Position numbers and translations under genes: made by a program
Assembly: GCA_016196885.1 (NCBI GenBank)
Contig: JACPWU010000056.1
Span: 56,804 to 88,803, forward strand
Source: Chlamydiota bacterium
Lineage (GTDB): Bacteria; Auribacterota; JACPWU01
DNA length: 32,000 nt
Direction of reading: 5' to 3'
Notes under the pieces: generated by a model
Seen by the model: the letters and a program-made list of their open reading frames with translations, nothing else
What the model was told of the DNA's origin: nothing
Databases searched by the model: none
Shown here: piece after piece, positions 2,054 to 27,665 of the stretch
Numbering within the stretch: position 1 is the stretch's first letter
Layout of the letters: each line of letters opens with the position of its first letter

Positions 2054-2184
2054 AGGCATATCCACTTGACTCCCCCAGTAGTCGCCCGATTCATCGGGCA
2101 ATCCATGCAAGGGACACAAGGCTGCCCCATAAATGGGGCGACTACAAATTCTTGCTATCTGAGGGGAATCAATGCATATGCCTA
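2054..2184 (-). mobile_element. Type I MITE-like element, copy 1, carrying a REPIN-like hairpin doublet
   Basis: TIRs are aggcatatccacttgactcccc (2054-2075) and ggggaatcaatgcatatgcct (2163-2183). Internal REP-B gtagtcgcccgattcatcgggc lies at 2078-2099 and REP-A (rc) gccccataaatggggcgactac at 2124-2145. A direct repeat aaaaagaat flanks it (2045-2053 and 2185-2193). Confidence 0.8.
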
Positions 2185-2270
2185 AAAAAGAATTCAGAAG
2201 ACAGAATGAATAATGAATAAGGTGCATTATTTATTCTGAATTCTGAATTCTGTCTTCTGAATTCTTTTTC
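2185..2270. repeat. Long AT-rich hairpin built from GAATTCAGA words (word family W2) in the divergent pilB/gmd intergenic region
   Basis: A perfect 23-bp stem pairs aaaaagaattcagaagacagaat (2185-2207) with attctgtcttctgaattcttttt (2247-2269). Imperfect pairing continues toward the loop ggtgcat (2221-2227). Confidence 0.8.
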
Positions 2271-2347
2271 TTTATTCTCTTTCTTTTAAAAATTTCTTGA
2301 TCAGGGGACACTACCCCATTACAATGGCCGCTACAGATGGAGGCAAG

Positions 2348-3358
2348 ATGAGTCAAAAGCGAGCTTTGATCACGGGTATTACGGGGCAGGATGGTTCGTA
2401 TCTGGCGGAGTTTCTTTTGGAAAAAGATTATCAAGTCTATGGGCTGATTCGGCGAAGCAGCACTCCGTCCCTAGATCGAATTCAACATTTGGATGATAAA
2501 ATAGAATTGGTTTCCGGAGATTTGATTGATGAAAATTCTTTGATTTCGGTTCTCCGGGAAACTCGGCCTGATGAAGTTTATAATTTAGCCGCACAATCCT
2601 TCGTTCCTGCTTCCTGGACGCAACCCCTTTTGACAGGCGAAGTGACGGCCTTGGGGGTTGCCCGCATGCTGGAAGCCATTCGCATCGTCAATCCAAAAAT
2701 TAAATTTTATCAAGCCTCCTCGAGTGAAATGTTTGGGCACGTTCAAGAAATACCTCAAACGGAGAAAACACCCTTTTACCCCAGAAGTCCCTATGGAGTG
2801 GCAAAACTTTATGGCCATTGGATCACGGTAAATTACCGAGAAAGCTATCATCTCTTTGCCTGCTCAGGCATTTTATTTAATCACGAATCACCCCGCCGTG
2901 GTTTAGAATTTGTGACACGAAAAATCAGTTACGGCGTTGCCTTGATTAAACACGGCTTGATTCAGGAACTCAGGCTTGGAAATTTGGATGCAAAAAGGGA
3001 CTGGGGTTTTGCAGGGGATTATGTGGAGGCCATGTGGCTCATGCTTCAGCAAAAAGAGCCGAGTGATTATGTGATTGCTACAGGAAGAAATCACTCTGTG
3101 AAAGATTTTGTGGAGCTTGCCTTTAAACATGCAGGGCTCACCTGGAAAAATCATGTCGTTGTAGATCCTAAATTCATGAGACCTGCAGAGGTTCATTTTC
3201 TCTTGGGAAATGCCGAGAAGGGCATGAAGGAATTGGGATGGAGACCCAGAGTGGATTTTGAAGGCCTCGCTAAACTCATGGTTGATTCGGATATAGAACT
3301 GGTGGGACAACTCATTCAACAAAAGGACAGGAGCTTAATTTCAAAGGTTACCCATTGA
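2348..3358 (+). CDS. gmd: GDP-mannose 4,6-dehydratase
   Basis: Motifs [31 protein letters not shown] (YxxxK) and the hallmark [11 protein letters not shown] prefer the ATG at 2348 ([10 protein letters not shown]) with GGAGG at 2338-2342 over the track's upstream TTG at 2297. Confidence 0.93.
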
Positions 3359-4338
3359 ATATTCTCATCACCGGTGTTTCAGGTTTTGCTGGCAGCCATT
3401 TGGCCGAATACATTGCGGGGCATGTCCCTTCCGCGGTGAAAATTCACGGGACCTACTTTCACTTGGAAGAAGCAAAAAAAAATTTAGGTCCTCTCTTTTC
3501 AAAACTCAAACTTTTTCATTACGACACGTCTCATCCTGAAACAATGGCGAAGATTCTTCGGGAATCCAGTCCTGAGATTATTTTTAATTTGGCCGGAATT
3601 GCATATGTTCCTGATGCAGAAAAAGACAAGTTCTTAACCTACCAGATCAACACCCTCAGTGTGGATAACCTTCTTGAAGGCGTTTCTAAAATTTGCCCTG
3701 GAGCAAAGATGATCCTCATCAGTTCGAGTGAGGTCTATGGCAAAGTCAAGCCCGATGAAACACCCCTTACTGAGAAGCATCCGGTCAATCCTCACAATAT
3801 TTATGGAGCTTCGAAGGGGGCCATGGAACTCATTGGAAGATATTACTTCAATCATTCAGGCTTACAAATCATAACACTCAGGGCTTTTAATCACGCGGGA
3901 CCCCGCCAGTCAGACCGATTTGTCATTTCTAATTTCTGTAGGCAGGCAGCAAAAATTAAATTGGGAATCTCCAGCCCCCGCTTAGAAGTAGGGGACCTTG
4001 AACCCCAGAGAGATTTTACAGATGTCCGAGACGTGGTACGAGGTTATTGGAATGCGGCGATCAGAGGAAAAGTAGGAGAGACCTACAATCTTTGCTCTGG
4101 TAGCGCTCATTCTATTAAAAAAATAGCTTCCATGATTGCACCATTGGCTGATCCTTCCATTGAAATTTTTCAGGATCCTACGAGACTGCGCAAAAGCAAT
4201 CTGCCGTTGCTGTTAGGAAGCTTCCAAAAATTTCAAGCGGATACCGGCTGGAAGCCAGACATTCCTCTTGAGAAAACCCTGCAAGATGTTTTCGAATTTT
4301 GGATGAAATATGAAAAAGCAGTCGTAAGTTGTAAGTAA
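3355..4338 (+). CDS. NAD(P)-dependent SDR epimerase/reductase, probably GDP-4-keto-6-deoxy-D-mannose reductase (Rmd-like)
   Basis: 327 aa with [15 protein letters not shown] glycine-rich loop, SSSEVYG and YGASKGA (YxxxK). The TTG start overlaps the gmd stop (TTGA at 3355-3358). The exact sugar specificity is inferred from adjacency to gmd only. Confidence 0.75.
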
Positions 4339-4370
4339 ATCACGTCTACCCTCCATCCTCTTAATTTATC

Positions 4371-4400
4371 TTGACTCTTTTTGAGATGGAATGTCATAAT
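4371..4400 (+). promoter_or_regulatory. Sigma70-like promoter candidate for the pyrophosphatase gene
   Basis: TTGACT (4371-4376), 18-nt spacer, then TGtCATAAT (extended -10, hexamer 4395-4400). This lies about 57 nt upstream of the ATG at 4457. Confidence 0.45.
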
Positions 4401-4456
4401 TCGTCCACGTTTTTCCTAGACAAAAACCAATCAAAATAAAGAAGAGCCCGCTTGAT

Positions 4457-6988
4457 ATGAAAAATTTAAAAAATAAGCGTAAACTTTCGACTTTTTCCCT
4501 TTTTGTCATCAGTCTGGTTTGGATAGGTCTTTACATTTATCCAAATGTTTTTGGAGAGTCCTCTTCAGGGGGAACCCCTCCTTTTGCATTTTTTTCCTTC
4601 ATGACCAATCCCCATTATACCTCCGTTGAGCGTGTTCTCCTCTGGAGCATTTTGGGGGTCGCGATTTCAGGCCTTCTTTACGCCCTCATGCTGGTAGGGC
4701 AGGTTCTTCGTGCTGAAAGAGGCACTGAAAAAATGATTCAGGTCGCCAAGGCGATTCGAGATGGAGCCAATGCCTACTTGATCCGACAATTTAAAACCAT
4801 TGCTCTTCTCATTGTTGTCCTCACCGTGGCCCTCTATTATACGGGGCTGGGTGCAGGAACCCATGTAGCCATTGGGAGGGCTTTTGCGTTCTTAATGGGG
4901 GCTATTTTTTCAGCGATGGTCGGCTGCGTAGGAATGAACCTTGCCGTACAGGGAAATCTCCGCGTGGCGGCCGCCTCTCGAAAAAGTTTTGGAAATGCAC
5001 TTCAAATTGCCTACCGCACGGGCACGATTACGGGCATGCTGACCGATGGTTTGGGACTTTTGGGCGGCACGGTGATTTTTATGGCCTATGGTGAAAAGGC
5101 TTATGAAGTTCTTTTAGGATTCGGCTTCGGAGGAACCTTGCTGGCCCTTTTCATGAGGGTAGGCGGCGGCATTTACACGAAGGCAGCAGATGTGGGGGCA
5201 GACATCGTTGGAAAAATTGAAGCTGGAATTCCGGAAGATGATCCCCGAAATGCGGCGACCATCGCTGATAATGTGGGAGACAATGTCGGAGACTGTGCAG
5301 GAATGGCGGCTGACATTTTTGAATCTTACGAAGTGACCATTGTTGCGGCCATGATCTTGGGATACGCATCCTTCGGACATAAAGGTGTGATTTATCCGCT
5401 TTTGGTCCGTGCGATTGGTGTTTTCTCTTCTATTATAGGGACCTATCTTGTGAAAGCGGGTGATAAGGGTAAAGCCTCTGACGCCATGAAAGCCATTAAC
5501 GTAGGCTTTTGGGTGTCTGCTGCGATTTCCATTGTAGGGTTTATGATTCTTGGATTTTTATATTTGAGATTTGATCCCGCTTATCTCTTGACCTGGAAAA
5601 TTCCAAGTATGGAAAACGCATCCTTTTGGATCACGCTTGGACAGTCAGGCCTCGACATGAGGCCGGTGTGGACGACCTTGATTGGAATTATTCTCGCCAT
5701 TGTCATTAACCGGGTCACCGAATATTTCACAGGAACTGATTTTTCCCCTGTCAAAAGCTTGGCTCGTTCTTGTCAAACAGGTCATGCCACCAATATCATC
5801 TCGGGCTTCGCAGTCGGCTATGAATCCTCTGTATGGGCTGTTCTTGTAATTGCAGGTGCCATTCTCGGCTCTGTTCTTGTTTACGGGGGGGCCAGTGCCA
5901 CCTTTGTCGCCTATGGCGTAGCCATGTGCGGTATTGGGATGCTAACCCTGACGGGAAATAACATTTCCATGGATGTGTTTGGCCCTGTCGCAGACAATGC
6001 AAATGGGATTGGTGAAATGTGCCATCTTGAAAAAGAGGCGCGTCAGACTTTGGCAGATTTAGATGCGGTTGGAAACACCACCAAGGCTATTACGAAAGGA
6101 GTCGCCATTGGCTCTGCTGTCATTGCCGCTGTCTCTCTCTTTAATTCTTATATCACAACGGTTGCCTCGGGTGGAGGAGGGGAGACCGCCATCGTCACGG
6201 AAGCCATGAAAGAGTTCGTCTCACAACTATTAACCGTTGCAGATCCCAAGCTTTTTATCGGGCTCTTAATCGGAGGTGCTATTCCCTTTCTCTTCTCATC
6301 ACTCACCATCCGAGCTGTTGGACGAGCAGCCTTCTTGATTGTCAAAGAAGTTCGTACCCAATTTAAAATCCCGGGCGTTCGAGAAGGAACTGTCACGCCC
6401 GATTACGGGAAAGTTGTTTCCATTTGTACTAGAGCTGCTCAAAAAGAATTGATCGGGCCCGGGCTCTTGGCCGTATTCACACCCTTAATTGTAGGTTACA
6501 GCTTGGGAGTGATTGGACTCGCAGGTTTTCTTGCAGGTCTCATTCTCTGTGGGCAGCTTTTGGCCGTATTCATGGCCAATGCCGGCGGAGCCTGGGACAA
6601 TGCCAAGAAAACCATTGAAGATGGTCTTTACGGAGGTAAAGGCTCTGAAGCCCATAAAGCCTCTGTCACAGGAGATACAGTTGGAGATCCCCTCAAAGAT
6701 ACCGCAGGCCCTGCGCTCAATCCCTTGATCAAGGTCATGAACATGGTCAGTCTCCTTAGCATTCCCCTGATTCTGCCTTACGATCGCCATATCATCGGGC
6801 TCATGAATAAATTTGCCACAGCACGCCAAATGCATGATACGGCAGGAAACCCCTTGGTGTTCAATCATGTTACCATGGGCCCTGCGGTCTATATTGGCCT
6901 GGCGGTTGCTGTTCTTGCCTTGGTCTGGACCCTTTGGAATTCCAAACGCGAGACGGCTGAGATGAAGCAAATGGATTTGGCGAAATAG
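4457..6988 (+). CDS. hppA: Membrane-bound proton-translocating inorganic pyrophosphatase (H+-PPase), K+-independent signature
   Basis: 843 aa, polytopic. Motifs GGGIYTKAADVGADIVGK, DNVGDNVGDCAGMAADIFESY and DTVGDPLKDTAGPALN. GNTTKA (Lys rather than Ala) is the signature of K+-independent enzymes. The start is uncertain: an alternative Met sits at codon 49 (nt 4601). Confidence 0.93.
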   Translation: MKNLKNKRKLSTFSLFVISLVWIGLYIYPNVFGESSSGGTPPFAFFSFMTNPHYTSVERVLLWSILGVAISGLLYALMLVGQVLRAERGTEKMIQVAKAIRDGANAYLIRQFKTIALLIVVLTVALYYTGLGAGTHVAIGRAFAFLMGAIFSAMVGCVGMNLAVQGNLRVAAASRKSFGNALQIAYRTGTITGMLTDGLGLLGGTVIFMAYGEKAYEVLLGFGFGGTLLALFMRVGGGIYTKAADVGADIVGKIEAGIPEDDPRNAATIADNVGDNVGDCAGMAADIFESYEVTIVAAMILGYASFGHKGVIYPLLVRAIGVFSSIIGTYLVKAGDKGKASDAMKAINVGFWVSAAISIVGFMILGFLYLRFDPAYLLTWKIPSMENASFWITLGQSGLDMRPVWTTLIGIILAIVINRVTEYFTGTDFSPVKSLARSCQTGHATNIISGFAVGYESSVWAVLVIAGAILGSVLVYGGASATFVAYGVAMCGIGMLTLTGNNISMDVFGPVADNANGIGEMCHLEKEARQTLADLDAVGNTTKAITKGVAIGSAVIAAVSLFNSYITTVASGGGGETAIVTEAMKEFVSQLLTVADPKLFIGLLIGGAIPFLFSSLTIRAVGRAAFLIVKEVRTQFKIPGVREGTVTPDYGKVVSICTRAAQKELIGPGLLAVFTPLIVGYSLGVIGLAGFLAGLILCGQLLAVFMANAGGAWDNAKKTIEDGLYGGKGSEAHKASVTGDTVGDPLKDTAGPALNPLIKVMNMVSLLSIPLILPYDRHIIGLMNKFATARQMHDTAGNPLVFNHVTMGPAVYIGLAVAVLALVWTLWNSKRETAEMKQMDLAK

Positions 6989-6997
6989 CGTTTTGTG

Positions 6998-7026
6998 TTG
7001 ATTTTTCCCTCACTTTTGTATAGAAT
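6998..7026 (+). promoter_or_regulatory. Sigma70-like promoter candidate upstream of receiver gene 1
   Basis: TTGATT (6998-7003), 17-nt spacer, TAGAAT (7021-7026). It would leave a very short leader before GTG 7036 or ATG 7045, so the promoter, the start, or both are uncertain. Confidence 0.3.
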
Positions 7027-7035
7027 AGATCTCTG

Positions 7036-7413
7036 GTGACTGCGATGAAAAAGCGTCAAAAAAGAATTCTTATTATTGACGATGATCAAACCATCGCTCT
7101 GATTCTCAAAGAATATTTGGAAAACAAGAGTTATTTTGTCTCTTACGCCACGCAAGTTTCGGATGTGGAGGGCCTTGTCTTAAAAGAAAAACCAAACATC
7201 ATCTTCTTAGATTACCGCATGAGCCCACTCACAGGAAAAGACATCTTAGAAAGAATCAGCCTTTTGAGGGAACCTGTTCCCGTTGTCATGATGTCCGCTT
7301 ATCGAACTCGGGAAGGTCTCTTCGAAGTTCAAAACCTAGGGGCCATTGATTATATCAGCAAGCCCTTTGATTTCGAAGAAATAGAATCTCTTCTCAACCG
7401 CGTCCTCCCTTAA
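7036..7413 (+). CDS. Single-domain response regulator (CheY-like receiver)
   Basis: 125 aa with acidic pocket ILIIDDD, phospho-acceptor context IIFLDYRM, MMSAY and SKPF. There is no output domain. An alternative ATG start lies at 7045. Confidence 0.85.
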   Translation: MTAMKKRQKRILIIDDDQTIALILKEYLENKSYFVSYATQVSDVEGLVLKEKPNIIFLDYRMSPLTGKDILERISLLREPVPVVMMSAYRTREGLFEVQNLGAIDYISKPFDFEEIESLLNRVLP

Positions 7414-7500
7414 ACTTCTGCGTTTCTACGATCACTTTTCACCGCAGAGACCCAGAGGAAAGATATTATCTCTAAAATTCAGTTGTAAACACCCCCACTT

Positions 7501-7666
7501 TTTTGCTATGAAAGTGAGGCTCATTTTGTAGTCGCCCCATTTATGGGGCGGTCTATGACATTGGGGCATTTGGCATTGCCCGATGAATCGGGCGACTACA
7601 AAAAAAGCATGATTGGGAGAACTTTCATCGTACACGATGATCTCGAAAGATCATTAAAATTGATAT
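7501..7666 (+). mobile_element. Type II MITE-like element, copy A, carrying the same REP doublet in a different carrier
   Basis: REP-A is at 7528-7549 and REP-B (rc) at 7578-7599, with a 28-nt spacer. The flanks ttttgctatgaaagtgaggctcat and aaaaaaagcatgattgggagaactttcatcgtacacgatgatctcgaaagatcattaaaattgat match 22163-22301 almost position for position. Confidence 0.8.
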
Positions 7667-7692
7667 AAAAAACAAAGGAACCAGGAGAATTT

Positions 7693-8073
7693 ATGTCTAA
7701 AAAGAAAATACTTGTTGTAGATGATGAGCCCAACATTCAAAAAATGTTGAGAACGCTTCTTGAAATTAACGACTACGAGGTGGAAACCGTTTCAAATGGG
7801 GGAGAGGCCATTGATCGGGTCAGACTCGAGGCGCCTGATTTGGTTTTGCTGGACTTGGTCATGCCCAAAGTAGATGGGTATAGGGTGCTAGAGACTTTAA
7901 AAAAGGATAAGGAAACAAAAGATGTTCCCATTATTCTTTTCACGGCCGCACCCCCTGAAGTTGCTGCAAAAACAGGGACTTCGGCTGTGGATGCGGTAGA
8001 CTATGTTTTAAAACCTTTTGACCGCGTCACGCTCTCTTTTCTTCTAAAAAGAATTAAAGAATTAACCGCATAG
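7693..8073 (+). CDS. Single-domain response regulator (CheY-like receiver)
   Basis: 126 aa with ILVVDDEP, LVLLDLVMPKVDG, ILFTA and LKPF. There is no output domain. Confidence 0.88.
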   Translation: MSKKKILVVDDEPNIQKMLRTLLEINDYEVETVSNGGEAIDRVRLEAPDLVLLDLVMPKVDGYRVLETLKKDKETKDVPIILFTAAPPEVAAKTGTSAVDAVDYVLKPFDRVTLSFLLKRIKELTA

Positions 8074-8091
8074 GAGTAACCATCTTAGGTT

Positions 8092-8421
8092 ATGAGTACA
8101 CAAATTAATAACACGCAAGATTTTGACAATGCCGTTCTCAATTCCAAAAAGCTTGTTTTGGTAGATTTCTGGGCTCCTTGGTGCGGTCCCTGCCGAGTGG
8201 TAGGTCCTGTGCTAGAAGAAATTTCAAAGGAGCTTTCGGAAAAGGTTGAGGTGGTGAAGATCAATGTGGACGAGAGCCAAGAACTCGCGGTTCGTTATGG
8301 AATCATGAGCATTCCGACGCTGATTCTTCTGAAAAATGGTAAAGTCATTGACCAGTCCATAGGTGCCTCTCCCAAAAATAAATTGGTCCAATGGATCAAT
8401 TCCGCATCGGATAACAAATAA
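8092..8421 (+). CDS. trxA: Thioredoxin
   Basis: 109 aa with active site WAPWCGPC and typical thioredoxin length and layout. Confidence 0.95.
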   Translation: MSTQINNTQDFDNAVLNSKKLVLVDFWAPWCGPCRVVGPVLEEISKELSEKVEVVKINVDESQELAVRYGIMSIPTLILLKNGKVIDQSIGASPKNKLVQWINSASDNK

Positions 8422-8437
8422 AACTCTTTGCCTCTAA

Positions 8438-9370
<933 letters not shown>

Positions 9371-9405
9371 AAAATACCAAAAATCAAATATCAAAAATCA
9401 AAATT
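9371..9405. repeat. Solo AT-word block (ATCAAAA family, W3) between mdh and the TPR lipoprotein gene
   Basis: aaaataccaaaaatcaaatatcaaaaatcaaaatt closely resembles the left arm at 12217-12252. I found no partner arm nearby. Confidence 0.6.
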
Positions 9406-9406
9406 A

Positions 9407-12139: not shown

Positions 12140-12410
12140 AAACTCTAAGGAAAGAAGAGGCTGGTGCGAAAATTCCCTCCCCCTTGTGGGGAGGGTTAGG
12201 GAGGGGGTGGATTTCTAAAATCAAATATCAAATATCAAAAATCAAAATGACAGTGTAAAATTTAAAATGTTTCTGGATTCTAAGCATATATAAAATTTTG
12301 CATTTTGATCTGTCATTTTGATTTTTGATGTATTTTCCACCCTCCCCTAACCCCTCCCATCAAGGGAGGGGAAAACAAGAGTTTTCGGCCCAGCCTGCCA
12401 GGGACGAAGG
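12140..12410. repeat. Nested composite palindrome: GC-rich arms enclosing a W3 AT-word hairpin
   Basis: GC arms ccctcccccttgtggggagggttagggagggggtgga (12175-12211) and tccaccctcccctaacccctcccatcaagggagggg (12336-12371) are inverted copies, and each holds its own small hairpin. Inside them a perfect 20-bp stem pairs 12234-12253 with 12310-12329. The outer weak inverted repeat is aggctggtgcg (12158-12168) with cggcccagcct (12386-12396). Confidence 0.8.
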
Positions 12411-14836: not shown

Positions 14837-16299
14837 ATTTCATCGATGGTGCTTGGTGCTCCTCAAAGTCAGGAAAAACCTTTTCCAATATTAACCCTGC
14901 CAACAAGGACGATATCATCGGAACATTTCCTGCCTCTGATGCCCAAGATGTTCAAAAAGCAGTCGAAAGTGCGGCTTCCTCTCTAGAAGAATGGCAAAAA
15001 ACTCCTCCCCCTAAAAGAGGTGAAATTCTCTTTCGGGTAGGTGAAATCCTCCAAAATCGAAAGGAAGAATTGGCCCAACTCATGACGCGGGAAATGGGAA
15101 AAATCCTAAGGGAGGCCCGAGGCGATATTCAAGAGGCCATTGACATGGCCTTTTACACTGCGGGGGAGGGCAGGAGGCTCCTCGGTCAAACCGTTCCTTC
15201 AGAATTGCCAAATAAATTTTGCATGACCCTAAGAGACCCCGTCGGAATTTGCGGGCTCATTACGCCTTGGAATTTTCCCATGGCCATTCCGTCCTGGAAA
15301 GTTTTCCCTGCCCTCATTTGCGCAAACACCGCTATTCTAAAGCCTGCCAGTGATACCCCGGCCTCTGCCACAAAATTTGTTGAAATTCTTTTAGAGGCAG
15401 GTCTTCCTCCTAAAACCTTGCAGCTGGTCCACGGCACAGGCCCTGAGGTAGGCACTCCTTTGGTGAAACATCCCCAAATCGAACTCATTTCCTTCACAGG
15501 CTCTTCTCAAACGGGTCAAGAGATTGCCGCTTATTGTTCCCAACATCACAAAAAGGTCTCCTTGGAAATGGGTGGGAAAAACGCCCAAATTGTCCTTGAA
15601 GATGCTAACTTAGACTTGGCCCTCGAGGGCATTGTCTGGGGAGCCTTCGGAACCACAGGGCAAAGATGCACGGCCAGTTCCAGGCTCATTCTCCAAAAGA
15701 AAATCGCCAGTGAGTTGACCCACAGACTCCTTAACAGGGCAAAAAATCTGAAACTGGGGAGCGGTCTTCTCTCGTCAACAGAGATGGGGCCTCTGATCAA
15801 TCAAAAACAGCTTGAGAAGGTCTCCGAATACGTCCAGATTGGACAAAAGGAAGGCGCTCAGCTTTTGACCGGGGGGCATCCTTACAGGGAAGGGGAATGC
15901 TCAAAAGGATTTTTCTTCTCCCCTACCATTTTCACGAATGTCCATTCTCAAATGCGTATTGCGCAAGAAGAAATTTTTGGACCCGTTCTTGCCATCATTG
16001 AGGTAGAAGATATTGAAGAAGCCATTCATGTGGCCAATGATACCTCTTACGGCTTATCCCTCTCTATTTACACTCAGGATATCAATCAGGCCTTTCATGC
16101 AATTCGGGCTTTTAAATCAGGTATTGTTTACGTCAACGCGCCCACAATCGGGGCGGAGGTACAGCTTCCCTTTGGTGGCATCAAACACACTGGAAATGGA
16201 CACCGCGAGGCCGCTCAAACGGCTCTAGATATTTTTTCAGAATGGAAAACGGTCTTCATAGACCACAGTGGAAGGCTGCAGAAAGCGCAGATTGATTAG
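14815..16299 (+). CDS. NAD(P)+-dependent aldehyde dehydrogenase family protein
   Basis: 494 aa with PWNFP, general base LEMGGKNA, nucleophile GQRCTASSR and EEIFGPV. AGGAGAG lies upstream of the ATG. The 5' end overlaps the permease gene by 22 nt. Confidence 0.92.
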
Positions 16300-16318
16300 A
16301 AATTTGAATTTTGATAAT

Positions 16319-16456
16319 AGGCATATGCACTTGATTCCCCTTTGTAGTCGCCCGATTCATCGGGCAAACCCATGCAAGGGGCACAGCCCCATGAATGGGG
16401 CGACTACAACTTCTTGCCATGGCGCTTGCTATCTAAGGGGAATCAAGTGCATATCA
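16319..16456 (-). mobile_element. Type I MITE-like element, copy 2 (same orientation as copy 1)
   Basis: TIRs are aggcatatgcacttgattcccc (16319-16340) and ggggaatcaagtgcatat (16437-16454). REP-B is at 16344-16365 and REP-A (rc) at 16386-16407. There is an 8-12 nt insertion (ccatggcg with repeated cttgc) relative to copy 1. Confidence 0.8.
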
Positions 16457-16721
16457 CACGTTCCACATTGTTAAAATGTTTAAATTCAAACGCGTATTCA
16501 TCCAGGCTGTTTCCCTCTTTGTGAAAAAGCCGATGGTGCTTTTTGCACAAGCTCTCCACATTATCCTGGGAAGAGGGGCCTCCATGAGACTTGGGCATGA
16601 CATGATGAATATCCAACTCATCCGTGGCAAATTCGTGCTTGCATTTCTTGCACCGATAATTATCCCTTTGAAGAATTTTATCTCTGAATTTCTTATAATT
16701 TACCTTTTCAAAGTCTTCCAT
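16443..16721 (-). CDS. Small stand-alone HNH endonuclease
   Basis: Motifs CKKCKH...LDIHHVMPKSHGG...N...LCKKHHRLFH give an HNH core with two CxxC/CxxH zinc pairs. I prefer the ATG at 16721 (MEDFEK...) with AAGGAGGA upstream. The track ORF extends to a GTG at 16817 that lies inside MITE copy 3 and adds a hydrophobic 32-aa N-terminus. The stop and last 4 codons lie inside the TIR of MITE copy 2. Confidence 0.8.
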   Translation of the reverse strand: MEDFEKVNYKKFRDKILQRDNYRCKKCKHEFATDELDIHHVMPKSHGGPSSQDNVESLCKKHHRLFHKEGNSLDEYAFEFKHFNNVERVICT

Positions 16722-16809
16722 AACAATCTCTTCCTCCTTTTGAAAAATAAAAAGTGGCACTATTATAAATAAGACTGTTAAGATGTAAAGAGGAAAGATG
16801 ATAAATTTC

Positions 16810-16936
16810 AGGCCCACGCACTTGATACCTCTTTAGATAGCAAAAGAATTTGTAGTCGCCCCATTTATGGGGCAGCCCCTTGCATGAATTTGCCCGATGA
16901 ATCGGGCGACTCCCAGGGGTATCAGGCGCATAGGCC
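16810..16936 (+). mobile_element. Type I MITE-like element, copy 3 (inverted relative to copy 2)
   Basis: TIRs are aggcccacgcacttgatacctc (16810-16831) and ggggtatcaggcgcataggcc (16916-16936). REP-A is at 16852-16873 and REP-B (rc) at 16892-16911, with a degenerate tail gcgactcc. The internal block ttagatagcaaaagaattt is the reverse complement of aaattcttgctatctga in copy 1. Confidence 0.78.
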
Positions 16937-17098
16937 GAATCAATTTTTCATATGGGGAATTTGATACCATGAAAGGCATTCAAAGAAGACAAAATAAAAT
17001 CATTCCGCTTCTACGGCCTGCCCATCCTCATGGGCCATCTCTCAAAGTGAAAAATGCGGGAAAAAATTCTCATGACAAGTGGGTAAGAAAAAATAAAG

Positions 17099-18157: not shown

Positions 18158-18158
18158 C

Positions 18159-19982: not shown

Positions 19983-20011
19983 TTGATTAAGAAAATTCTT
20001 TAGGGTATAAT
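19983..20011 (+). promoter_or_regulatory. Sigma70-like promoter candidate for the HAMP-like membrane protein / tsaC operon
   Basis: TTGATT (19983-19988), 17-nt spacer, TATAAT (20006-20011). This lies about 48 nt upstream of the TTG start at 20059. Confidence 0.5.
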
Positions 20012-20058
20012 TCATACGATTTGATTCATGAACAAACTATAACCTGTAGGGTGCATTT

Positions 20059-20529: not shown

Positions 20530-20541
20530 TGCTCTAATTTT

Positions 20542-21639
20542 ATGACCCAACATCTCATCATTGACCGCTCTCTTCCTGATCCGGCGATTATCAATCAGGC
20601 CGCGCAAGTCTTAAGAGAAGGGGGGCTTGTTGCATTTCCAACAGATACCGTTTATGCACTTGGAGTCAATATTCTCCTACCGGAATCAGTCAAGAAAGTC
20701 TATGAGGCAAAAAAGAGAGCTCGCGAAAGAACGCTTCCCATTCTCTTATCCCACTCGCAACAATTGGAGCACCATCTTGAATCCCTGGACGGACGAGTAA
20801 AAAAATTGATCGAATGTTTTTGGCCGGGTCCTCTGACACTTGTCCTCACCTGTAACAAGGGAACGCTCTCGGGACAAAAAGTGGGCTTCCGAGTTCCTGA
20901 CGACTTGATTGCAAGCAAAATCATTGATCAGACAGGGGTTCCCATTGGCTGCCCCAGTGCAAATTTGAGCGGGGAAGCAGGCGCCCGAACGGCTCAAGAA
21001 GTTCTCAAAGACTTAGACGGAAAGATTGATCTTTTGATTGACGCGGGTCCGACCCGTATCGGAAAAGGTTCGACCATGGTGGAAGTAGAACCCAACAGAA
21101 TTAAGTTCCATCGCTACGGATTTATTTCTGAAGAGCTCATTGACACGTGTCTGAACCGCCCGCATCTTGAAAAGGGAAAAATTAAAAAGGTTCTCTTCGT
21201 TTGCACGGGGAACAGCTGTCGAAGCGTTATGGCAGAGGGTCTTTTCAATAAATGGGCGGGTGACAAAAAGGATATCAAAGCCGTCTCTGCAGGGACCACG
21301 GCCTTTCCGGGGATCCGCCCCTCTGAAAACACCATTCTCGTCATGAGAGATGAAGAGGCGGACGTCTCCTACCACCTCTCTCAATCTCTTACGCCTGAGC
21401 TGATCTCAAGTTCAGATCTCATCATTGCTATGACTAAAGCCCATCAGCGTTTTATCCTTGAAATATCTAAGAATCCTGAGGTAGATTCAAAGAAGGTTCA
21501 TATTCTGATGGAATTTGCAAGCCGATGGGATTTTTTCGGCATGGACGTCGAAGACCCGATAGGACAACCCTTATGGGCCTATCGCAATTGTCTAAAAATG
21601 ATGCGCGATCCCATTTTAAGATTGGTAGGGACGTTATGA
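20542..21639 (+). CDS. tsaC: Fusion protein: L-threonylcarbamoyladenylate synthase (TsaC/YwlC/Sua5 family) + low-molecular-weight phosphatase (YwlE-like)
   Basis: 365 aa. Residues 1-200 form a YrdC/Sua5 fold (GGLVAFPTDTVYALG, LPILL, WPGPLTLVL, SANLSG). Residues ~215-365 form an LMW-PTP domain with P-loop CTGNSCRS, SAGT and general-acid DVEDPIG. Confidence 0.88.
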   Translation: MTQHLIIDRSLPDPAIINQAAQVLREGGLVAFPTDTVYALGVNILLPESVKKVYEAKKRARERTLPILLSHSQQLEHHLESLDGRVKKLIECFWPGPLTLVLTCNKGTLSGQKVGFRVPDDLIASKIIDQTGVPIGCPSANLSGEAGARTAQEVLKDLDGKIDLLIDAGPTRIGKGSTMVEVEPNRIKFHRYGFISEELIDTCLNRPHLEKGKIKKVLFVCTGNSCRSVMAEGLFNKWAGDKKDIKAVSAGTTAFPGIRPSENTILVMRDEEADVSYHLSQSLTPELISSSDLIIAMTKAHQRFILEISKNPEVDSKKVHILMEFASRWDFFGMDVEDPIGQPLWAYRNCLKMMRDPILRLVGTL

Positions 21640-22076
21640 AAATTGCATTGGGGGCCGATCACGGCGGTTATAAACTCAAGGAAGAAATTAAATCTAAACT
21701 TGAGGGCCTGGGTCATCAAGTCACAGACGTAGGATGTTTTAATGAAGAATCCGTAGATTATCCAGACTACGGGGCCCGGGCCTCTAAAAAGGTTTCTGAA
21801 GGGAGTTCAGACCGGGCCATTCTTCTGTGTAAAACCGGAATCGGCATGAGCATCGTGGCCAATAAAATCAGAGGGGTGCGAGGAGCACTCTGCATGGACG
21901 AAAAGATGGCCAAGATGAGCCGCCTTCACAACGACGCGAATGTTTTGATTTTGCCTGCGACTTACGTCAAAGAAAATCAGGCGATGAAAATTGTGGATGA
22001 GTGGCTCAAGACCGATTTTGAGGGAGGCCGCCATGAGAAGAGGGTTAAGAAGATTAAAGATATAGAAAATCATTAG
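21636..22076 (+). CDS. rpiB: Ribose-5-phosphate isomerase B
   Basis: The ATG at 21636 overlaps the upstream stop (ATGA). Motifs MKIALGADHGGYKLK, LLCKTGIGMSIVANK and NDANVLIL. About 146 aa. Confidence 0.92.
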   Translation: MKIALGADHGGYKLKEEIKSKLEGLGHQVTDVGCFNEESVDYPDYGARASKKVSEGSSDRAILLCKTGIGMSIVANKIRGVRGALCMDEKMAKMSRLHNDANVLILPATYVKENQAMKIVDEWLKTDFEGGRHEKRVKKIKDIENH

Positions 22077-22135
22077 AAATATCAAAATGCAAAGATCAAA
22101 ATGCAAAATGACAATCCAAAAATCAAAATTTTTCA
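22077..22135. repeat. W3 AT-word block, left arm of a hairpin that encloses MITE type II copy B
   Basis: aaatatcaaaatgcaaagatcaaaatgcaaaatgacaatccaaaaatcaaaattttt. The segment caaaatgaca (22104-22113) pairs perfectly with tgtcattttg (22301-22310). Confidence 0.7.
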
Positions 22136-22162
22136 ACGCAACAACATGGGAGACATTTTAAA

Positions 22163-22301
22163 TTTTGCTATGAAAGTGAAGCTCATTCTGTAGTCGCCCC
22201 ATTTATGGGGCTGCCCGATGAATCGGGCGACTACAAAAAAAGCATGATGGGAAGGACTTTCATCACACACGATGATCTCGAAGGATCATTGAAATTAATA
22301 T
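22163..22301 (+). mobile_element. Type II MITE-like element, copy B (minimal REP doublet, 1-nt spacer)
   Basis: REP-A (22190-22211) and REP-B rc (22213-22234) are separated by a single T. The flanks are colinear with 7501-7666, including the hairpin gatgatctcgaaggatcat. Confidence 0.8.
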
Positions 22302-22330
22302 GTCATTTTGATTTTTGATATTTGAATTTT
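22301..22330. repeat. W3 AT-word block, right arm
   Basis: The reverse complement of tgtcattttgatttttgatatttgaatttt, aaaattcaaatatcaaaaatcaaaatgaca, matches the left arms at 22077-22113 and 12217-12252. Confidence 0.7.
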
Positions 22331-22345
22331 CCAGGAAATGAAACC

Positions 22346-23590
22346 ATGACAAGCAAACTTGAACAAGTAGATCCAGAAATTGCAAAGGCCATTCATGAGG
22401 AAACCCTGAGGCAGGCGCAAGGTCTAGAACTCATCGCCTCCGAAAATTTTGTCAGCGAAGCTGTTCTAGAAGCCCTCGGCTCCGTGATGACCAACAAATA
22501 TGCGGAGGGTTATCCCTCCAAGCGATGGTACAACGGCTGCGAATTTGTGGACGTTGCAGAGCAATTGGCCATTGACCGCGCCAAGCTTCTCTTTGGAGCC
22601 GAGCATGTAAATGTGCAGCCCCACTCCGGCTCCCAAGCCAACATGGCTGTCTATTTCAGCAAGCTCCAGGTAGGGGATACCATCCTGGCCATGGACCTGG
22701 CCCATGGCGGACATCTCACCCATGGGAGCAAAGTCAATTTTTCAGGAAAATTCTTCAACATTGTTTCTTATGGCGTCAATCGAGAAACCGAAAGAATTGA
22801 TTATGAAGAGGTTCGGCAATTGGCCCTAAAACATCGCCCCAAGCTGATTTTAGGAGGTGCCAGTGCTTATCCCAGAATCATTGATGCTCAAAAATTAAGA
22901 GAAATCGCTAGTGAGGTGGAGGCTTTTCTCATGGTGGACATGGCCCATTTTGCAGGACTGGTTGCGGCGGGGATTCACCCAAGTCCGATCCCGTATTCTC
23001 ACTTTGTCACCACCACAACCCACAAGACGCTTCGAGGTCCTCGAGGCGGTATGATTCTTTGCAAAAGTGAATTTGCAAAGGAAATTGATTCGCAAATATT
23101 TCCAGGCATTCAAGGCGGGCCTCTCATGCACGTGATTGCAGCCAAGGCAGTGTCCTTCAAAGAAGCCTTGTCGCCCCACTTCAAGGAATATCAAAAACGT
23201 GTTGTCGCCAATGCACTCACCCTGGCCAAGAGCCTTACAGAAAAGGGCTTGCGGATTGTTTCAGGAGGCACAGACACGCACCTCATGCTCGTGGATCTTT
23301 CCGCTTGGAAACTCACAGGCAAAGATGCGGCGACTTATCTCGACCGCTCAGGGATCACCGTTAATAAAAACCTCATTCCATTTGACAAAGAAAGTCCTTT
23401 TAAGGCAAGTGGCATTCGGATCGGAACTCCGGCCATCACGACACGGGGAATGGGTCCTTCCCAAATGAGTGAAATTGCAGAGTTGATTACGGACGTTTTA
23501 AAACATCCAGATGATAAAACGATTCAGGGCGTGCGTCAGAAAGTTCTAAAACTCTGCGAACAATTTCCCCTCTATCAGGATCGGCTCTAG
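22346..23590 (+). CDS. glyA: Serine hydroxymethyltransferase
   Basis: PLP-lysine motif [14 protein letters not shown] and the canonical N-terminus [15 protein letters not shown]...ELIASENF. I prefer the ATG at 22346 over the upstream TTG at 22322, which lies in the repeat. Confidence 0.96.
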
Positions 23591-24043
23591 GTGAAATGTC
23601 CTTTTTGCTCCCATCTTGAAGACAAGGTCGTAGACTCCAGAGAATCCGGAGAAGGGGATTCCACTCGAAGAAGACGCGAATGCCTTAAGTGTGGAAGAAG
23701 ATTCACCACCTACGAAAAAATAGAAGAAATCCCTCTTAAAGTGGTAAAGAAAGACAACACCCGCGAGGATTACGACCGCCGTAAAATTCTAAATGGTATT
23801 TTAAAAGCCTGTGAAAAAAGACCTGTCAGTGTTGAACAAATTGAAGGCATGGTGGATGAAATCGAGCGGGAAATCGAAAAGGGATACGAACAAGAAGTCC
23901 ATTCCAAGGAGATTGGGGAGCTTGTCATGGCAAAATTACACAACTTAGACGAAGTCGCCTACGTTCGATTTGCCTCTGTGTACAGGCAGTTCAAAGACGT
24001 GAATGAATTTATGGAAGTGATTAAGAAGCTATTGAAGGGATGA
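23591..24043 (+). CDS. nrdR: Transcriptional repressor NrdR
   Basis: 150 aa with zinc ribbon MKCPFCSH...[12 protein letters not shown] followed by an ATP-cone. The GTG start follows the glyA stop directly. Confidence 0.95.
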
Positions 24044-24057
24044 AGTCCTGTAGGGCT

Positions 24058-25611
24058 CTACTTTTTCAGCTCAAAAATCTCGCACTGCTTCAAAAGCCAC
24101 TGATAATACTCATAAAATATCTTTTGTTGTTTTCTTGCCAATACACGGTCGTGATAAGCTGTTTTTAATTTCTCAAATTCTTCCCTAGAAGGATCTAGAC
24201 TTTTCTTAACCCAGAAAAAGGCGCTGCCATTTTGAGTTTCTACCACTTGCGATATTTTTCCAATCTCTACGTCCCAAGCCGCTTTCCGTATCATTCCATA
24301 CGCATCAGATGAAACCAGAGATTCTGGACGGGTAAAAGGGGAGAGCTTCTCAACTTTTTCTCCAAGCGCCTTGCAGCTTTGAGAAAAAGAAAATTTAGGA
24401 TCATTTTTTGCCGAGAGTAATTTTCCGTAAATTTCCTCGGCTTTTTTCTTCGCTTCTTCTTTGGCTTTTTCCCCGATCAACAAATCACGGACCTGGGTCT
24501 GGACCTCTTCCAGCGAAGGAATGTAGGAAGGTTTCTCCCTCATAGGAACCACGACGTAATAAACCTCATTCACCCAAACGGGCTCCAGAGATTCTTTTAA
24601 GTCACCTTCAAAAATATTCTTGAGAAGGCCCGCTTCATTTTTCCAAATGGGTAGGGGGTTCCCCCGGGTAAAAAAATCTGTTCTTTGGACAGGAAAACCA
24701 CATTCTTGAGCTACCTTCACAAAGGATTTTTTCTTAGATAATCCGTGATAAATCTTTCTGGAAATTTTCTGAGCTAACTTGGACGCCTTTCCTTTTTTTA
24801 ACTGGTTTTCAATTTCTTGAGAAACCTCCGTCAGGGGTTTCTTAAAGTTCTCTTTATGTTTTTGATAAAAAGTTTCCACCTCCTTGGAAGAGACCACCAT
24901 CTTTTGATCGGCCAAATCCTTGACATTCACCGCAAAATAATTCACCCTTCGCTGGACGCCCACTCTAAAATTTTCCGGGTGCTGATCGAAATACTGTTTC
25001 AATTCCAGCTCATTCACAGAAACAGAATCCAGAAAGCGGTTCGAGGCAATCTCGCAATAGCGAATGTCCAATTTTTCCTTTTCATAATAATAAGACTCGT
25101 AAATTTCATCATCAGAAACCTGAACGAGTTTCTTCAATGCCTCTTGAAATTTTTCAATAAGAAGGGTCTCTCGATAGGCCTTTTCAAATTCATAGACGGA
25201 AAGCTTTAGGGCGTTCTTCACATAAAATTCATATATCCTGGAATCAAATACATCCTTGGGATCTTTTGCAAAGGCCTTCACAATCTCGCGTGACAATTCC
25301 TGATCGGTAACGCCTACCCCTGACTTTTGAGCCTCGTGAAGCAGAATCATTCGCTGCCAGGCCACTTGCTCTAAGAAAGAGGGATCCCGAAGCGACGATT
25401 GCTTCAAACTTAAAATGGCCGATGCATTGTTTCTCTCTTTGAGAAAATCTGAGAGACGGATCTTCTGTCCAAAAAGAATACCTACCACCCCATCTTCCTT
25501 GCGGGCAAAAACACTCTCGATCCCAAAAAAGAGAAAGGGCGGAACAATCAGGGTAAGCAAAGTCCATAAAATGAGCTTCGTATTTTTTCGAATCTTCTTG
25601 AGCACAGACAC
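24058..25611 (-). CDS. Membrane-anchored periplasmic chaperone, PpiD/SurA-like (parvulin domain apparently degenerate)
   Basis: 517 aa with an N-terminal TM anchor LILWTLLTLIVPPFLFFGI, SurA_N-like helical regions, and a C-terminal segment IGKISQVVETQNGSAFFWVKK resembling the end of a parvulin fold. Confidence 0.7.
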   Translation of the reverse strand: MSVLKKIRKNTKLILWTLLTLIVPPFLFFGIESVFARKEDGVVGILFGQKIRLSDFLKERNNASAILSLKQSSLRDPSFLEQVAWQRMILLHEAQKSGVGVTDQELSREIVKAFAKDPKDVFDSRIYEFYVKNALKLSVYEFEKAYRETLLIEKFQEALKKLVQVSDDEIYESYYYEKEKLDIRYCEIASNRFLDSVSVNELELKQYFDQHPENFRVGVQRRVNYFAVNVKDLADQKMVVSSKEVETFYQKHKENFKKPLTEVSQEIENQLKKGKASKLAQKISRKIYHGLSKKKSFVKVAQECGFPVQRTDFFTRGNPLPIWKNEAGLLKNIFEGDLKESLEPVWVNEVYYVVVPMREKPSYIPSLEEVQTQVRDLLIGEKAKEEAKKKAEEIYGKLLSAKNDPKFSFSQSCKALGEKVEKLSPFTRPESLVSSDAYGMIRKAAWDVEIGKISQVVETQNGSAFFWVKKSLDPSREEFEKLKTAYHDRVLARKQQKIFYEYYQWLLKQCEIFELKK

Positions 25612-25660
25612 CTTTTTGTTCTAGAATGATGGGGTATCTTCTATTATTTTTCACAAAACT

Positions 25661-26869
25661 TCAACCTAAAGTTATCATCTTCCACTCATTCTTAAAAAAA
25701 TCTTGCCAGGGTAGACAACGTACTTTCCCCAGTTGAATAGGCTGAGATATGTTTGAGACCACAATCAATTCTGCTTCAGGAAATTCTTCCGAGAAGCTAC
25801 GAAGCCCTCTGATTTGATCTTTCGTAATGGTGGAAGTAGCCTTGATTTCGATGGCGCGGATTTTGTCGCCTCTTTCTTGGACAAGATCTACCTCAACTCC
25901 GGAGCGTGTCCTAAAAAAGCCTATTCGATGTTCTGTTCTCAGATAGTCATGCAGGCGTATGAACTCAAGAATGCAGAAGTGTTCAAAGAACTTTCCAAAA
26001 AGAGGAGTCTTTGGACGAAGTTCTGTTGAGAGGTTTTGCGTGAGTGTATTCACAACACCTGTATCAAAAAAGTAAAACTTGCCATGTGTAACCAATTCTT
26101 TTCGAGAATGATGGTGTCCCCAGGACGACAAAAAGAAACCGATGAGCGTGTCTTCTAAAATCTCATAATAGGAAGCAACCGTCTTACGTGGAACAGCGGC
26201 TTCTTGACCCATTTTTGTCATATTGATAAGCTCACCGTTTGAGTAGGCTGCTGATTCCAAGAATCTATGGAAGGCATCTAGGCGTCTTGTTAAAGCCTCT
26301 GATTGTATCTCTTCTCTCAAATAGGTCATGACATAAGCCTTCATCTGTTCCATTTTTTCCTCCCTCGTTCTGTCAACAAGAGAAGGAAGAGTCCCAAATT
26401 GAAGAGCATCTAAAAGAGAAAAGTGCTCTCCTATTTCTAGGAAAGAAAGAGGATAGAGACTTCTTTGCCAAGCGCGACCGGCCAGGAGATTGGCTCCTCC
26501 TTTTTTTAATTTTCGAGCACTTGAACCACTCAAGAGAAAACGAATTCTACCTGGATAACTTTCCAAAAGGGAGTGGACCTCATCAAGCAAAGGGGGAATT
26601 TTCTGTATTTCATCAATATGAATTTGAATGGGTCCCTGACCTTCATGTAACAAGGCCTCGATTTCATGACGTAAGAGGGACGGATCCGCCTGGAGTTTTA
26701 AAAAGTCATCACTTTTAAGCAGGTCGTGAACAATTTTAGGCCCCTGTTCTGCTGCAAGATAATTTCTGATCAAAGTGCTTTTTCCTGTGGTACGAGGCCC
26801 AAAAAGAAAAAAAGACTGATGATGGGGGATATTCTGTATTTTAAACAATCTCGTATACATAGTTGCCAT
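25661..26869 (-). CDS. AAA+ ATPase of the COG1373 / AAA_14 + DUF4143 type
   Basis: 402 aa with Walker A LFGPRTTGKSTL and Walker B IHIDEIQKIP. The C-terminal region has the layout I associate with DUF4143. The function is unknown. Confidence 0.8.
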   Translation of the reverse strand: MATMYTRLFKIQNIPHHQSFFLFGPRTTGKSTLIRNYLAAEQGPKIVHDLLKSDDFLKLQADPSLLRHEIEALLHEGQGPIQIHIDEIQKIPPLLDEVHSLLESYPGRIRFLLSGSSARKLKKGGANLLAGRAWQRSLYPLSFLEIGEHFSLLDALQFGTLPSLVDRTREEKMEQMKAYVMTYLREEIQSEALTRRLDAFHRFLESAAYSNGELINMTKMGQEAAVPRKTVASYYEILEDTLIGFFLSSWGHHHSRKELVTHGKFYFFDTGVVNTLTQNLSTELRPKTPLFGKFFEHFCILEFIRLHDYLRTEHRIGFFRTRSGVEVDLVQERGDKIRAIEIKATSTITKDQIRGLRSFSEEFPEAELIVVSNISQPIQLGKVRCLPWQDFFKNEWKMITLG

Positions 26870-26998
26870 TATACGTCTAAATACGGCAACTGACTAGCCA
26901 AAATTCATAATAACGCCAAAAAAAGAGATATTTAACACCTGTATTGGAATTATCAGGAGCAGAGCAACATAACGAAAATGACTGGACGAATTCAGTTC

Positions 26999-27027
26999 TT
27001 TACTTCTCCCTTTCTGATTTTTATAAT
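26999..27027 (+). promoter_or_regulatory. Sigma70-like promoter candidate for the YacP-like gene
   Basis: TTTACT (26999-27004), 17-nt spacer, TATAAT (27022-27027). Confidence 0.35.
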
Positions 27028-27083
27028 GGCCCCATGGATTTATTTTTATATGACGAAATTCTGAAGGATATCCAAAAAGTTCT

Positions 27084-27500
27084 GTGATCCATATTTTAAT
27101 TGATGTCCATAATTATCTTCACTCCATCCCTCGCTATCGAAAGGCTCTTTCTAAAAATTACGGCCAGGCTCTTCTTGAGCTCTTACACGACCTTGTCGAA
27201 TATCAAGACTGGACACAAAATCACCTCATCTTGGTCTTAGACGGTCGCGCTCAAGAAAACGTTCAAAATCTAAAAGGGGTAGATATTCTCTTCAGCGGCC
27301 CGGATAAAACAGCTGATTGCCTCATCGAAAAATGGGTTGTTCAACATCCCCATAAAAATGGGATTCTGGTGATTACATCTGATTTTGCGATTCAAAGGGC
27401 GGCCTTGGCTGAAGGCGGACGTTTCATGAGCCCGGAAGAATTCGATCGAAGGATTCAATGTGAATTAGAGGAAGAAAAGCCCAAAGATTTTACATTTTAA
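27084..27500 (+). CDS. YacP/Rae1-like NYN-domain ribonuclease
   Basis: 138 aa with ILIDVHNYLH, LILVLDG and VITSDFAIQRAA, matching the YacP (DUF901) NYN pattern. It has a GTG start. Confidence 0.78.
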   Translation: MIHILIDVHNYLHSIPRYRKALSKNYGQALLELLHDLVEYQDWTQNHLILVLDGRAQENVQNLKGVDILFSGPDKTADCLIEKWVVQHPHKNGILVITSDFAIQRAALAEGGRFMSPEEFDRRIQCELEEEKPKDFTF

Positions 27501-27511
27501 ATTTTTAGGTT

Positions 27512-27530
27512 GAAAAGCCCTGGCTTTTTT
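27512..27530 (+). terminator. Weak rho-independent terminator candidate after the YacP-like gene
   Basis: gaaaagc-cctg-gctttttt: a 6-bp, mostly A-U stem followed by a T-run. Confidence 0.3.
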
Positions 27531-27552
27531 CACATACTAACGAGAAAATGAC

Positions 27553-27665
27553 ATAGGTGCTTGATACCCCTGGTTCAATGCAATTTGTAGTCGCCCCATT
27601 TATGGGGCCGACCCTTGTATGGATTTGCCCGACTACAAAGATCGCCCGATGAATCGGGCGACTAC
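27553..27665 (+). mobile_element. Type I MITE-like element, copy 4 (degenerate, right TIR missing)
   Basis: The left TIR-like ataggtgcttgatacccc lies at 27553-27570. REP-A is at 27587-27608 and REP-B (rc) at 27644-27665. An internally deleted REP-B remnant gcccgactac lies at 27627-27636. Confidence 0.7.

Follow-up and report, generated by a model that had tools for sequence, protein, structure and literature searches.

A family of GTAG-headed, head-out hairpin doublets of the REP type in a groundwater Chlamydiota genome

Are the inverted pairs of short GTAG-headed hairpins that recur along a 32-kb stretch of a groundwater Chlamydiota genome mobile elements, and to which known system do they belong? 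The stretch, called the window in this manuscript, is a 32,000-nucleotide (nt) part of contig JACPWU010000056.1 in a metagenome-assembled genome (MAG). An earlier note, made from the sequence alone, had compared the pairs to REPINs, which are inverted doublets of repetitive extragenic palindromic (REP) sequences. In our analysis, the repeats are probably (probability of about 0.6) non-autonomous GTAG-tagged REPs, arranged as head-out heterodimers similar to REPINs or to the bacterial interspersed mosaic elements (BIMEs) of E. coli and embedded in longer imperfect palindromes, which would be mobilised by an enzyme of the REP-associated tyrosine transposase (RAYT) type. They are a new family within the long-known GTAG-REP superfamily, set apart by comparison with the text descriptions of the published families. 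The evidence comes from the anatomy and covariation of the hairpins, their absence from related genomes and their distribution in other phyla, and it is presented in that order before the mobilising enzyme and the rival explanations are weighed.

Anatomy and covariation of the hairpin units

The window was searched for the pattern GTAGTCGCCCSATTYATSGGGC with up to three mismatches allowed. This search returned 12 matches, 11 of them perfect, which form six pairs, while 0.01 matches would be expected by chance and none of 100 dinucleotide-preserving shuffles reached 12. Each unit is 22 nt long and consists of GTAGTC, a 6-bp stem and a TTYA loop. The GTAG head is present in 11 of the 12 units, the B unit of element 4 having GGAG instead (elements are numbered as in Table 1). 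All six pairs are oriented head-out (GTAG-hairpin ... hairpin-CTAC), and all six combine one unit A, GTAGTCGCCCCATTTATGGGGC, with one unit B, GTAGTCGCCCGATTCATCGGGC, across a spacer of 1-35 nt. At stem pair 5, the C:G of A (stem GCCCC) is replaced by G:C in B (stem GCCCG). B units have a TTCA loop, and A units have TTTA apart from that of element 3, whose loop is also TTCA.

The search thus recovered exactly the six pairs of 22-nt units that the earlier note had listed, and the inverted, GTAG-tagged architecture that it had likened to REPs and REPINs is confirmed. The swap at stem pair 5 is as it had been described, and the T/C difference in the loop can be added to it. Two details required correction. 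The fourth pair is real, but its B unit ends at 16913 and not at 16911. In addition, the statement that A cannot fully pair with B is right as far as full pairing is concerned, but 19 of the 22 positions can still pair, and ViennaRNA predicted a single long hairpin, and not two short ones, for five of the six elements (z = -5.7 to -10.1).

Covariation was calculated from 48 distinct units, taken from the window and from 51 foreign loci described below; the only criteria for their selection were GTAGT and TTYA at a fixed distance. Changes on both sides were seen in each of the six stem pairs, with 70 compensatory cells compared with 21 in shuffles. The covariation score was 0.593 vs 0.204, a value that none of 500 shuffles matched, and it collapsed when the partner strand was slid. 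GTAGT and TT.A were fixed by this selection, so their conservation was judged on a separate set of 140 units chosen only by GTAG and a paired 6-bp stem. Within that set the loop was TTTA or TTCA in 129 units, T followed GTAG in 124, and TC or TT followed it in 118. The Y REP of E. coli also has a TTCA/TTTA loop. The hairpin is selected for pairing, with a free stem sequence and a fixed loop and head, and the family consensus is GTAGTY-G(N4)A-TTYA-T(N4)C.

This conservation matches the recognition pattern of the S. maltophilia REP/TnpA-REP system (Corneloup et al., PMC8266576), where the loop and GTAG are likewise fixed and the stem is free but paired. The S. maltophilia REP is a perfect palindrome; in vitro, both binding and cleavage by TnpA-REP depend on the loop sequence and on a stem that is not interrupted, the identity of the stem bases has little influence, and cleavage also requires GTAG.

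Every anatomical feature of the window elements is listed for the GTAG-tagged REP superfamily in Di Nocera, De Gregorio & Rocco 2013 (PMC3733652). That text describes 24 families from Proteobacteria, Cyanobacteria, Chloroflexi and the PVC superphylum, which form HH (GTAG outside), TT and HT dimers, HH being the commonest, with spacers of 1-100 bp and stems of 6-9 bp. Subfamilies are set apart by complementary stem changes, and heterodimers are frequent, for which protection from hairpin-cleaving nucleases is suggested as the reason. Clusters, copies at the ends of open reading frames (ORFs) and families with an unpaired dinucleotide after GTAG (GTAG-1/-2) are also described. The window family differs in two respects. 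First, its consensus matched none of the published families when compared with their descriptions in the text of that paper. Secondly, the hosts of the window-type unit belong almost entirely to uncultivated phyla, including the present Chlamydiota MAG. A literature search with 16-mers of the unit also returned no relevant match, in agreement with the suggestion that the family may be undescribed in this lineage. On the other hand, the A/B swap is not a peculiarity of the lineage, because heterodimers are usual in many GTAG families according to the same text and make up all 37 of the head-out doublets that we collected from at least 12 phyla. The window elements would extend the GTAG-REP superfamily to an environmental Chlamydiota lineage, within a superphylum that this text already covers.

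The doublets are the core of longer palindromic elements of about 115-165 nt, and conserved sequence reaches 20-60 nt beyond the doublets. Two subtypes were recognised, which have the core in common and outer inverted arms unlike each other. Type I (elements 1, 3 and 4, and element 6 only partly) has outer inverted arms of the form AGGCATATGCACTTGATTCCCC / GGGGAATCAAGTGCATATGCCT. Type II (elements 2 and 5) has other, weaker arms and a 60-nt right-hand extension; its two members have 91-96% identity outside a 28-nt deletion in the spacer. The combination of two inverted REPs of different sequence type is similar to the REPIN-RAYT system (Bertels & Rainey 2011, PMC3116915) and to the E. coli BIMEs (Y/Z), where two inverted REPs are replicated as one unit and conserved sequence extends beyond the REPs, as it does here. 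REPINs differ from the window elements in being defined together with a flanking single-copy RAYT gene.

Absence from relatives and presence in other phyla

The gene order aldehyde dehydrogenase or ABC transporter, HNH endonuclease, holA, which in the window includes elements 3 and 4, is kept in two other Chlamydiota assemblies and in a Logan contig. A hairpin of the form GTAG..ATTYAT was absent from the 34 kb of syntenic DNA of these three relatives. In the relative L056 the called genes for rpiB and serine hydroxymethyltransferase (SHMT) are 1 nt apart, whereas the 245 nt that separate them in the window include element 5. DNA identity between the relatives and the window is only about 75%, and intergenic divergence is too great for base-exact empty sites to be defined. 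Because the syntenic regions of the three relatives are without the hairpin, the window copies are, as judged from these 34 kb, lineage-specific insertions in the groundwater Chlamydiota genome. A comparison of orthologous regions had been proposed as a way of distinguishing a mobile family from a conserved cis-element, and its outcome favours mobility.

The HNH gene provides the clearest view of one such site. Its homologues are 71-80% identical to it, have 133-138 amino acids and end in an acidic C-terminal tail of about 45 amino acids. Element 3 stands where all orthologues have this tail, and it supplies the last codons and a new stop, so the 3' end of a resident gene was remodelled by one copy. 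The claim that all copies are intergenic therefore needs one exception, as element 3 overlaps the end of the HNH ORF. The gene was also considered as the mobilising enzyme, since it lies between the inverted elements 3 and 4 as a RAYT gene does in a REPtron. This candidate was rejected for two reasons: the same synteny exists in the element-free relatives, and no HNH homologue was found near the hairpins in the 51 foreign loci. Because the orthologues keep the same synteny in relatives without the elements, the HNH gene is resident and not part of element 3, and it was the elements that came to the locus.

A second record of the same sequence was available. The window is 99.97% identical to the 3' part of JACOUD010000042.1 (GCA_016178005.1, "MAG: Chlamydiae bacterium", from groundwater), and the sole difference in 19.4 kb is an extra TCACAC at window positions 16455-16460. 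This indel falls precisely where element 3 meets the 3' end of the HNH gene, and it changes the HNH C-terminus from ...NNVELCT to ...NNVERVICT in the window.

Beyond Chlamydiota, an exact-pattern scan of one genome per GTDB species returned at least 51 stretches, compared with about 0.5 expected by chance according to our arithmetic. Among the matches listed, the 22-mer was found in MAGs of more than 10 phyla, with the labels Stahlbacteria (many copies per MAG), WOR-3, Zixibacteria, Poribacteria, Nitrospirae, Nitrospinota, Planctomycetota, Elusimicrobiota, Actinomycetota, Doudnabacteria and Proteobacteria. Three complete Poribacteria chromosomes (OZ242335.1, OZ220744.1 and OZ244042.1) carry the unit. 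Plasmids and viral contigs gave no match. The BLAST similarity between the foreign loci and the window is limited to 23-33 nt around the unit. At the foreign loci a second unit in inverted orientation typically follows the first after 1-35 nt; GTAGT and the ATTYAT centre are retained in it, but its stem is a different one (GTCTG, GTCCA, GTTTG, GCTCA, GCCTG and others). Among 57 neighbouring pairs from the window and the foreign loci, 37 were head-out, 15 tandem and five head-in. None of the 37 head-out pairs was a homodimer, the partners being identical at 13-20 of 22 positions. The A+B combination of the window was found again in three MAGs, labelled Actinomycetota (L004), Nitrospinota (L006) and Doudnabacteria (L023), and in the first of these the outer arms and the spacer also resemble those of type I.

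Horizontal spread of a single REP system among more than 10 phyla, most of them uncultivated and Chlamydiota among them, with an undescribed RAYT subclass or a non-RAYT enzyme as its mobiliser, is a doubtful explanation for this distribution. The presence of identical 22-mers in different phyla is not necessarily a sign of recent transfer, because only about six positions are truly free and the stems are GC-biased; shared recognition constraints could produce them. If such spread had occurred, it would contradict the view that REPINs are inherited vertically and bound to one lineage as partners of its resident RAYT. Populations of REPIN-RAYT systems are described as specific to their lineage and passed on mostly by vertical descent, unlike a unit present in more than 10 phyla. 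The common design of head, loop and stem length, found in MAGs with the labels of at least 12 phyla, allows the movement of REP systems between phyla to be asked about, and across so many uncultivated phyla it provides a sequence handle for the cognate enzyme.

Several other arrangements were seen at the foreign loci. Tandem arrays of units in the same orientation with a 34-37-nt period occur at L035 5836-6095 (at least eight copies), L014 177-291 and L003 104-222. They lie directly upstream of a gene that reads by eye like an acetate/butyrate kinase, and they resemble BIME-2-type clusters. The TTTA loop of the second unit is, at Stahlbacteria-like loci, the exact site at which further small hairpins have been inserted, with the loop bases duplicated (positions in Table 1). 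Either the loop serves as a target for insertion, or one element is nested in another.

The proposed mobilising enzyme and rival explanations

According to the mechanism that we propose, each 22-nt unit would fold into a 6-bp hairpin on single-stranded DNA. The hairpins would be recognised, by their TTYA loop, paired stem and 5' GTAG(T), by a Y1 HUH enzyme of the RAYT/TnpA-REP type that acts in trans and whose gene presumably lies in another part of the genome. This enzyme would cleave beside the hairpin and rejoin the DNA, and the doublet with its arms would thereby be copied into new AT-rich intergenic sites. The stems of a doublet differ; therefore, each unit can fold alone and the locus is not a perfect long palindrome. 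The doublets are found in co-directional, convergent and divergent intergenic contexts.

The mobilising enzyme was sought with a motif screen, tblastn and a hidden Markov model (HMM) of the RAYT profile on all six-frame ORFs of the hairpin-bearing foreign loci, about 400 kb. The sole Y1_Tnp gene in this sequence is in a Stahlbacteria locus (L005, 1503-2045, minus strand; Pfam Y1_Tnp E = 4.7e-10). Members of its clade are named "REP-associated tyrosine transposase" by NCBI, and the profile matches E. coli TnpArep 4ER8 (E = 8e-16). A profile search of the protein database identified 2,924 relatives of this RAYT; the best 120 of them are mostly from Chloroflexota, and none of these 120 has a Chlamydiota label. 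Bona fide RAYT genes, at L005, L057-L060, L066, L068 and L119, are flanked by hairpins of GTAG, a short GC stem and TTTA or TTCA, whose stems alternate and covary. From these flanking hairpins it follows that the head-and-loop design of the window units belongs to the RAYT world.

Five observations weigh against mobilisation by a RAYT. First, neither a RAYT/Y1_Tnp gene nor any other transposase was found in 42 kb of the contig (the window and a further 10 kb), and none was found in the relatives. Secondly, the RAYT gene of L005 is flanked by a different GTAG REP, GTAG-GGCG-TTTA-CGCC, with a 4-bp stem, no spacer and head-in orientation, and the nearest window-type doublet is 1.7 kb away. Third, the window-type unit was present in none of 80 metagenome loci of the clade of this RAYT. 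Fourth, the outer arms resemble the terminal inverted repeats of miniature inverted-repeat transposable elements (MITEs), most clearly the perfect 19 bp of element 3, and such arms are not a feature of HUH insertion. Lastly, the same is true of the 9-nt direct repeat around element 1. The absence of a RAYT gene from the window had been noted before and is confirmed, as the window encodes no transposase of any class; the link to RAYTs that had been drawn from the architecture is an inference. A side observation concerns both repeat types. Tracts of CTACGCC/CTACTCC-like heptamers (reverse complement GGCGTAG) border Stahlbacteria doublets at L010, L020, L032, L039, L040, L042 and L048, and the same ...CGCCCTACTCC motif forms the end of the REP beside the L005 RAYT, which may be a link between the two.

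A different possibility is that the hairpins are now selected by the host and no longer move, acting as RNA stabilisers or processing sites, or as DNA sites for gyrase or IHF. Roles of this kind are assigned to REPs in PMC3733652, as proposed for E. coli REP/BIME, and they would be compatible with a mobile origin. The strong folds of the elements (z values above), the conservation of the loop across phyla and the position of A as the first unit in all three copies between co-directional genes are in line with it. However, the orthologous sites of the relatives are without the hairpins, and there was no orientation bias among 12 foreign co-directional cases, in which the two orientations were found eight and four times. 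Copies also occur in divergent, convergent and tandem contexts. No T-run, terminator-like or promoter signature was seen around the type II elements 2 and 5, whose flanks are A-runs on the coding strand. Rfam 15 gave no matches at gathering thresholds over the window, and permissive E-values at 16250-17000 gave chance-level matches only (E > 7). In addition, G:U pairs are rare in the stems and A.C mismatches are equally present. A host function as the whole explanation is thus unlikely.

We consider it quite improbable that the mobile unit is the whole palindrome of 115-165 nt, a classical MITE whose outer repeats are bound by the DDE transposase of an unseen parent insertion sequence (IS), with the GTAG hairpins as an internal module only. 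Correia elements, ERIC/IRU and the Rickettsia RPEs are palindromic, MITE-like repeats of 100-150 nt with terminal inverted repeats and AT-rich intergenic insertion, and RPEs remodel the ends of coding regions as one window copy does. To our knowledge, none of them has a GTAG-headed REP core or any sequence in common with the window family. Insertion of Correia elements duplicates TA, and the window elements have no consistent duplication beside them. The perfect terminal inverted repeat of element 3 would be expected of a MITE, as would the related outer arms in elements 1, 4 and 6 and, with the same spacer, in the Actinomycetota MAG. Element 1 is flanked by a 9-nt direct repeat, AAAAAGAAT (2045-2053 / 2185-2193), which is the sole candidate for a target-site duplication; none was seen at elements 2-6. 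The subtypes differ in their arms and share the core, and across phyla only the 22-nt unit is common, as the short BLAST similarity indicates. A transposase or IS with such arms was not present in the window, and there was no plasmid or viral-contig match.

Chance recurrence or an assembly or binning artefact is extremely improbable: the source is a MAG and a Logan contig of the same sample breaks inside repeats, but 12 matches were found where 0.01 were expected, the second NCBI contig agrees with the window across the elements, no two copies are the same and each has flanks of its own, and independent assemblies from many phyla contain the same units.

Positions of the elements and neighbouring sequences

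The six elements, the HNH gene and the loop-inserted hairpins of the foreign loci are summarised in Table 1. The six loci in the window are the only copies on the sequence covered, as a further 10 kb of the contig, which contains an operon of the type II secretion system (T2SS), has none. The genes of the window are ordinary chromosomal genes, namely those for the T2SS ATPase, GDP-mannose dehydratase, H+-PPase, response regulators, thioredoxin, MDH, TPR proteins, an ABC transporter, aldehyde dehydrogenase, holA, SHMT, NrdR, RadC and NYN proteins. No tRNA was found in the window.

Table 1. Coordinates of the hairpin elements, their units and associated features (window positions unless a locus is named; MFE, minimum free energy)
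Feature	Position	Strand	Units	Spacer	Arms and other properties	Context
Element 1, type I	2054..2183	+	B 2078-2099 (+), A 2124-2145 (-)	24 nt	outer arms AGGCATATCCACTTGACTCCCC / GGGGAATCAATGCATATGCCT	between divergent genes for T2SS ATPase and GDP-mannose dehydratase
Element 2, type II	7501..7666	+	A 7528-7549 (+), B 7578-7599 (-)	28 nt	outer arms GCTATGAAAGTGAGGCTCAT / ATGATTGGGAGAACTTTCATCG; 3' extension carries hairpin GATGATCTcgaaAGATCAT	between two co-directional response-regulator genes
Element 3, type I	16319..16454	+	B 16344-16365 (+), A 16386-16407 (-, TTCA loop)		perfect 19-bp terminal inverted repeat ATATGCACTTGATTCCCCT at 16323-16341 and 16436-16454; MFE -79 kcal/mol, z = -10	
HNH endonuclease gene, resident	16443..16721	-			92 amino acids	
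Element 4, type I	16810..16935	-	A 16852-16873 (+), B 16892-16913 (-, head GGAG)		orientation opposite to element 3	between divergent HNH gene and holA
Element 5, type II	22163..22301	+	A 22190-22211 (+), B 22213-22234 (-)	1 nt		between rpiB and glyA (SHMT)
Element 6, type I, partial	27555..27670	-	A 27587-27608 (+), B 27644-27665 (-)		single outer arm	
Loop-inserted hairpins	L024 1094-1150 and 4736-4790; L005 about 3700-3770; L027 about 4080-4150					

The spacer of element 6 contains, at 27627-27636, what reads as a collapsed third unit, GCCCGACTAC, in which the 5' arm of the stem is joined directly to the head and the loop and the other stem arm are deleted. This suggests a hairpin-mediated deletion.

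Other repeats are present near the elements. Immediately next to element 1, at 2184-2269, is an AT-rich palindrome (AAAAAGAATTCAGAAGACAGAATGAATAAT ... inverted). A second, unrelated repeat family consists of AT-rich inverted repeats of ATCAAAA-like heptamers and was found at 12183-12370, at 22078-22134 with 22301-22330, and at 9373-9405. In the first of these copies the AT-rich arms are at 12234-12271 and 12292-12329, and they are bracketed by a G-rich inverted repeat, GGGGAGGGTTAGGGAGGGGGTGG / CCACCCTCCCCTAACCCCTCCC, at 12183-12215 / 12335-12370. The second copy is split by element 5.

Repeats of this kind break short-read assemblies of such MAGs and are therefore relevant to binning and scaffolding. 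For example, a Logan contig from SRR12113387 (L053), which corresponds to window positions 7637-9405, has both ends inside repeats, one in the right part of element 2 and the other in the AT-rich repeat at 9373-9405. These ends are consistent with both repeat families being multicopy in the sampled population.

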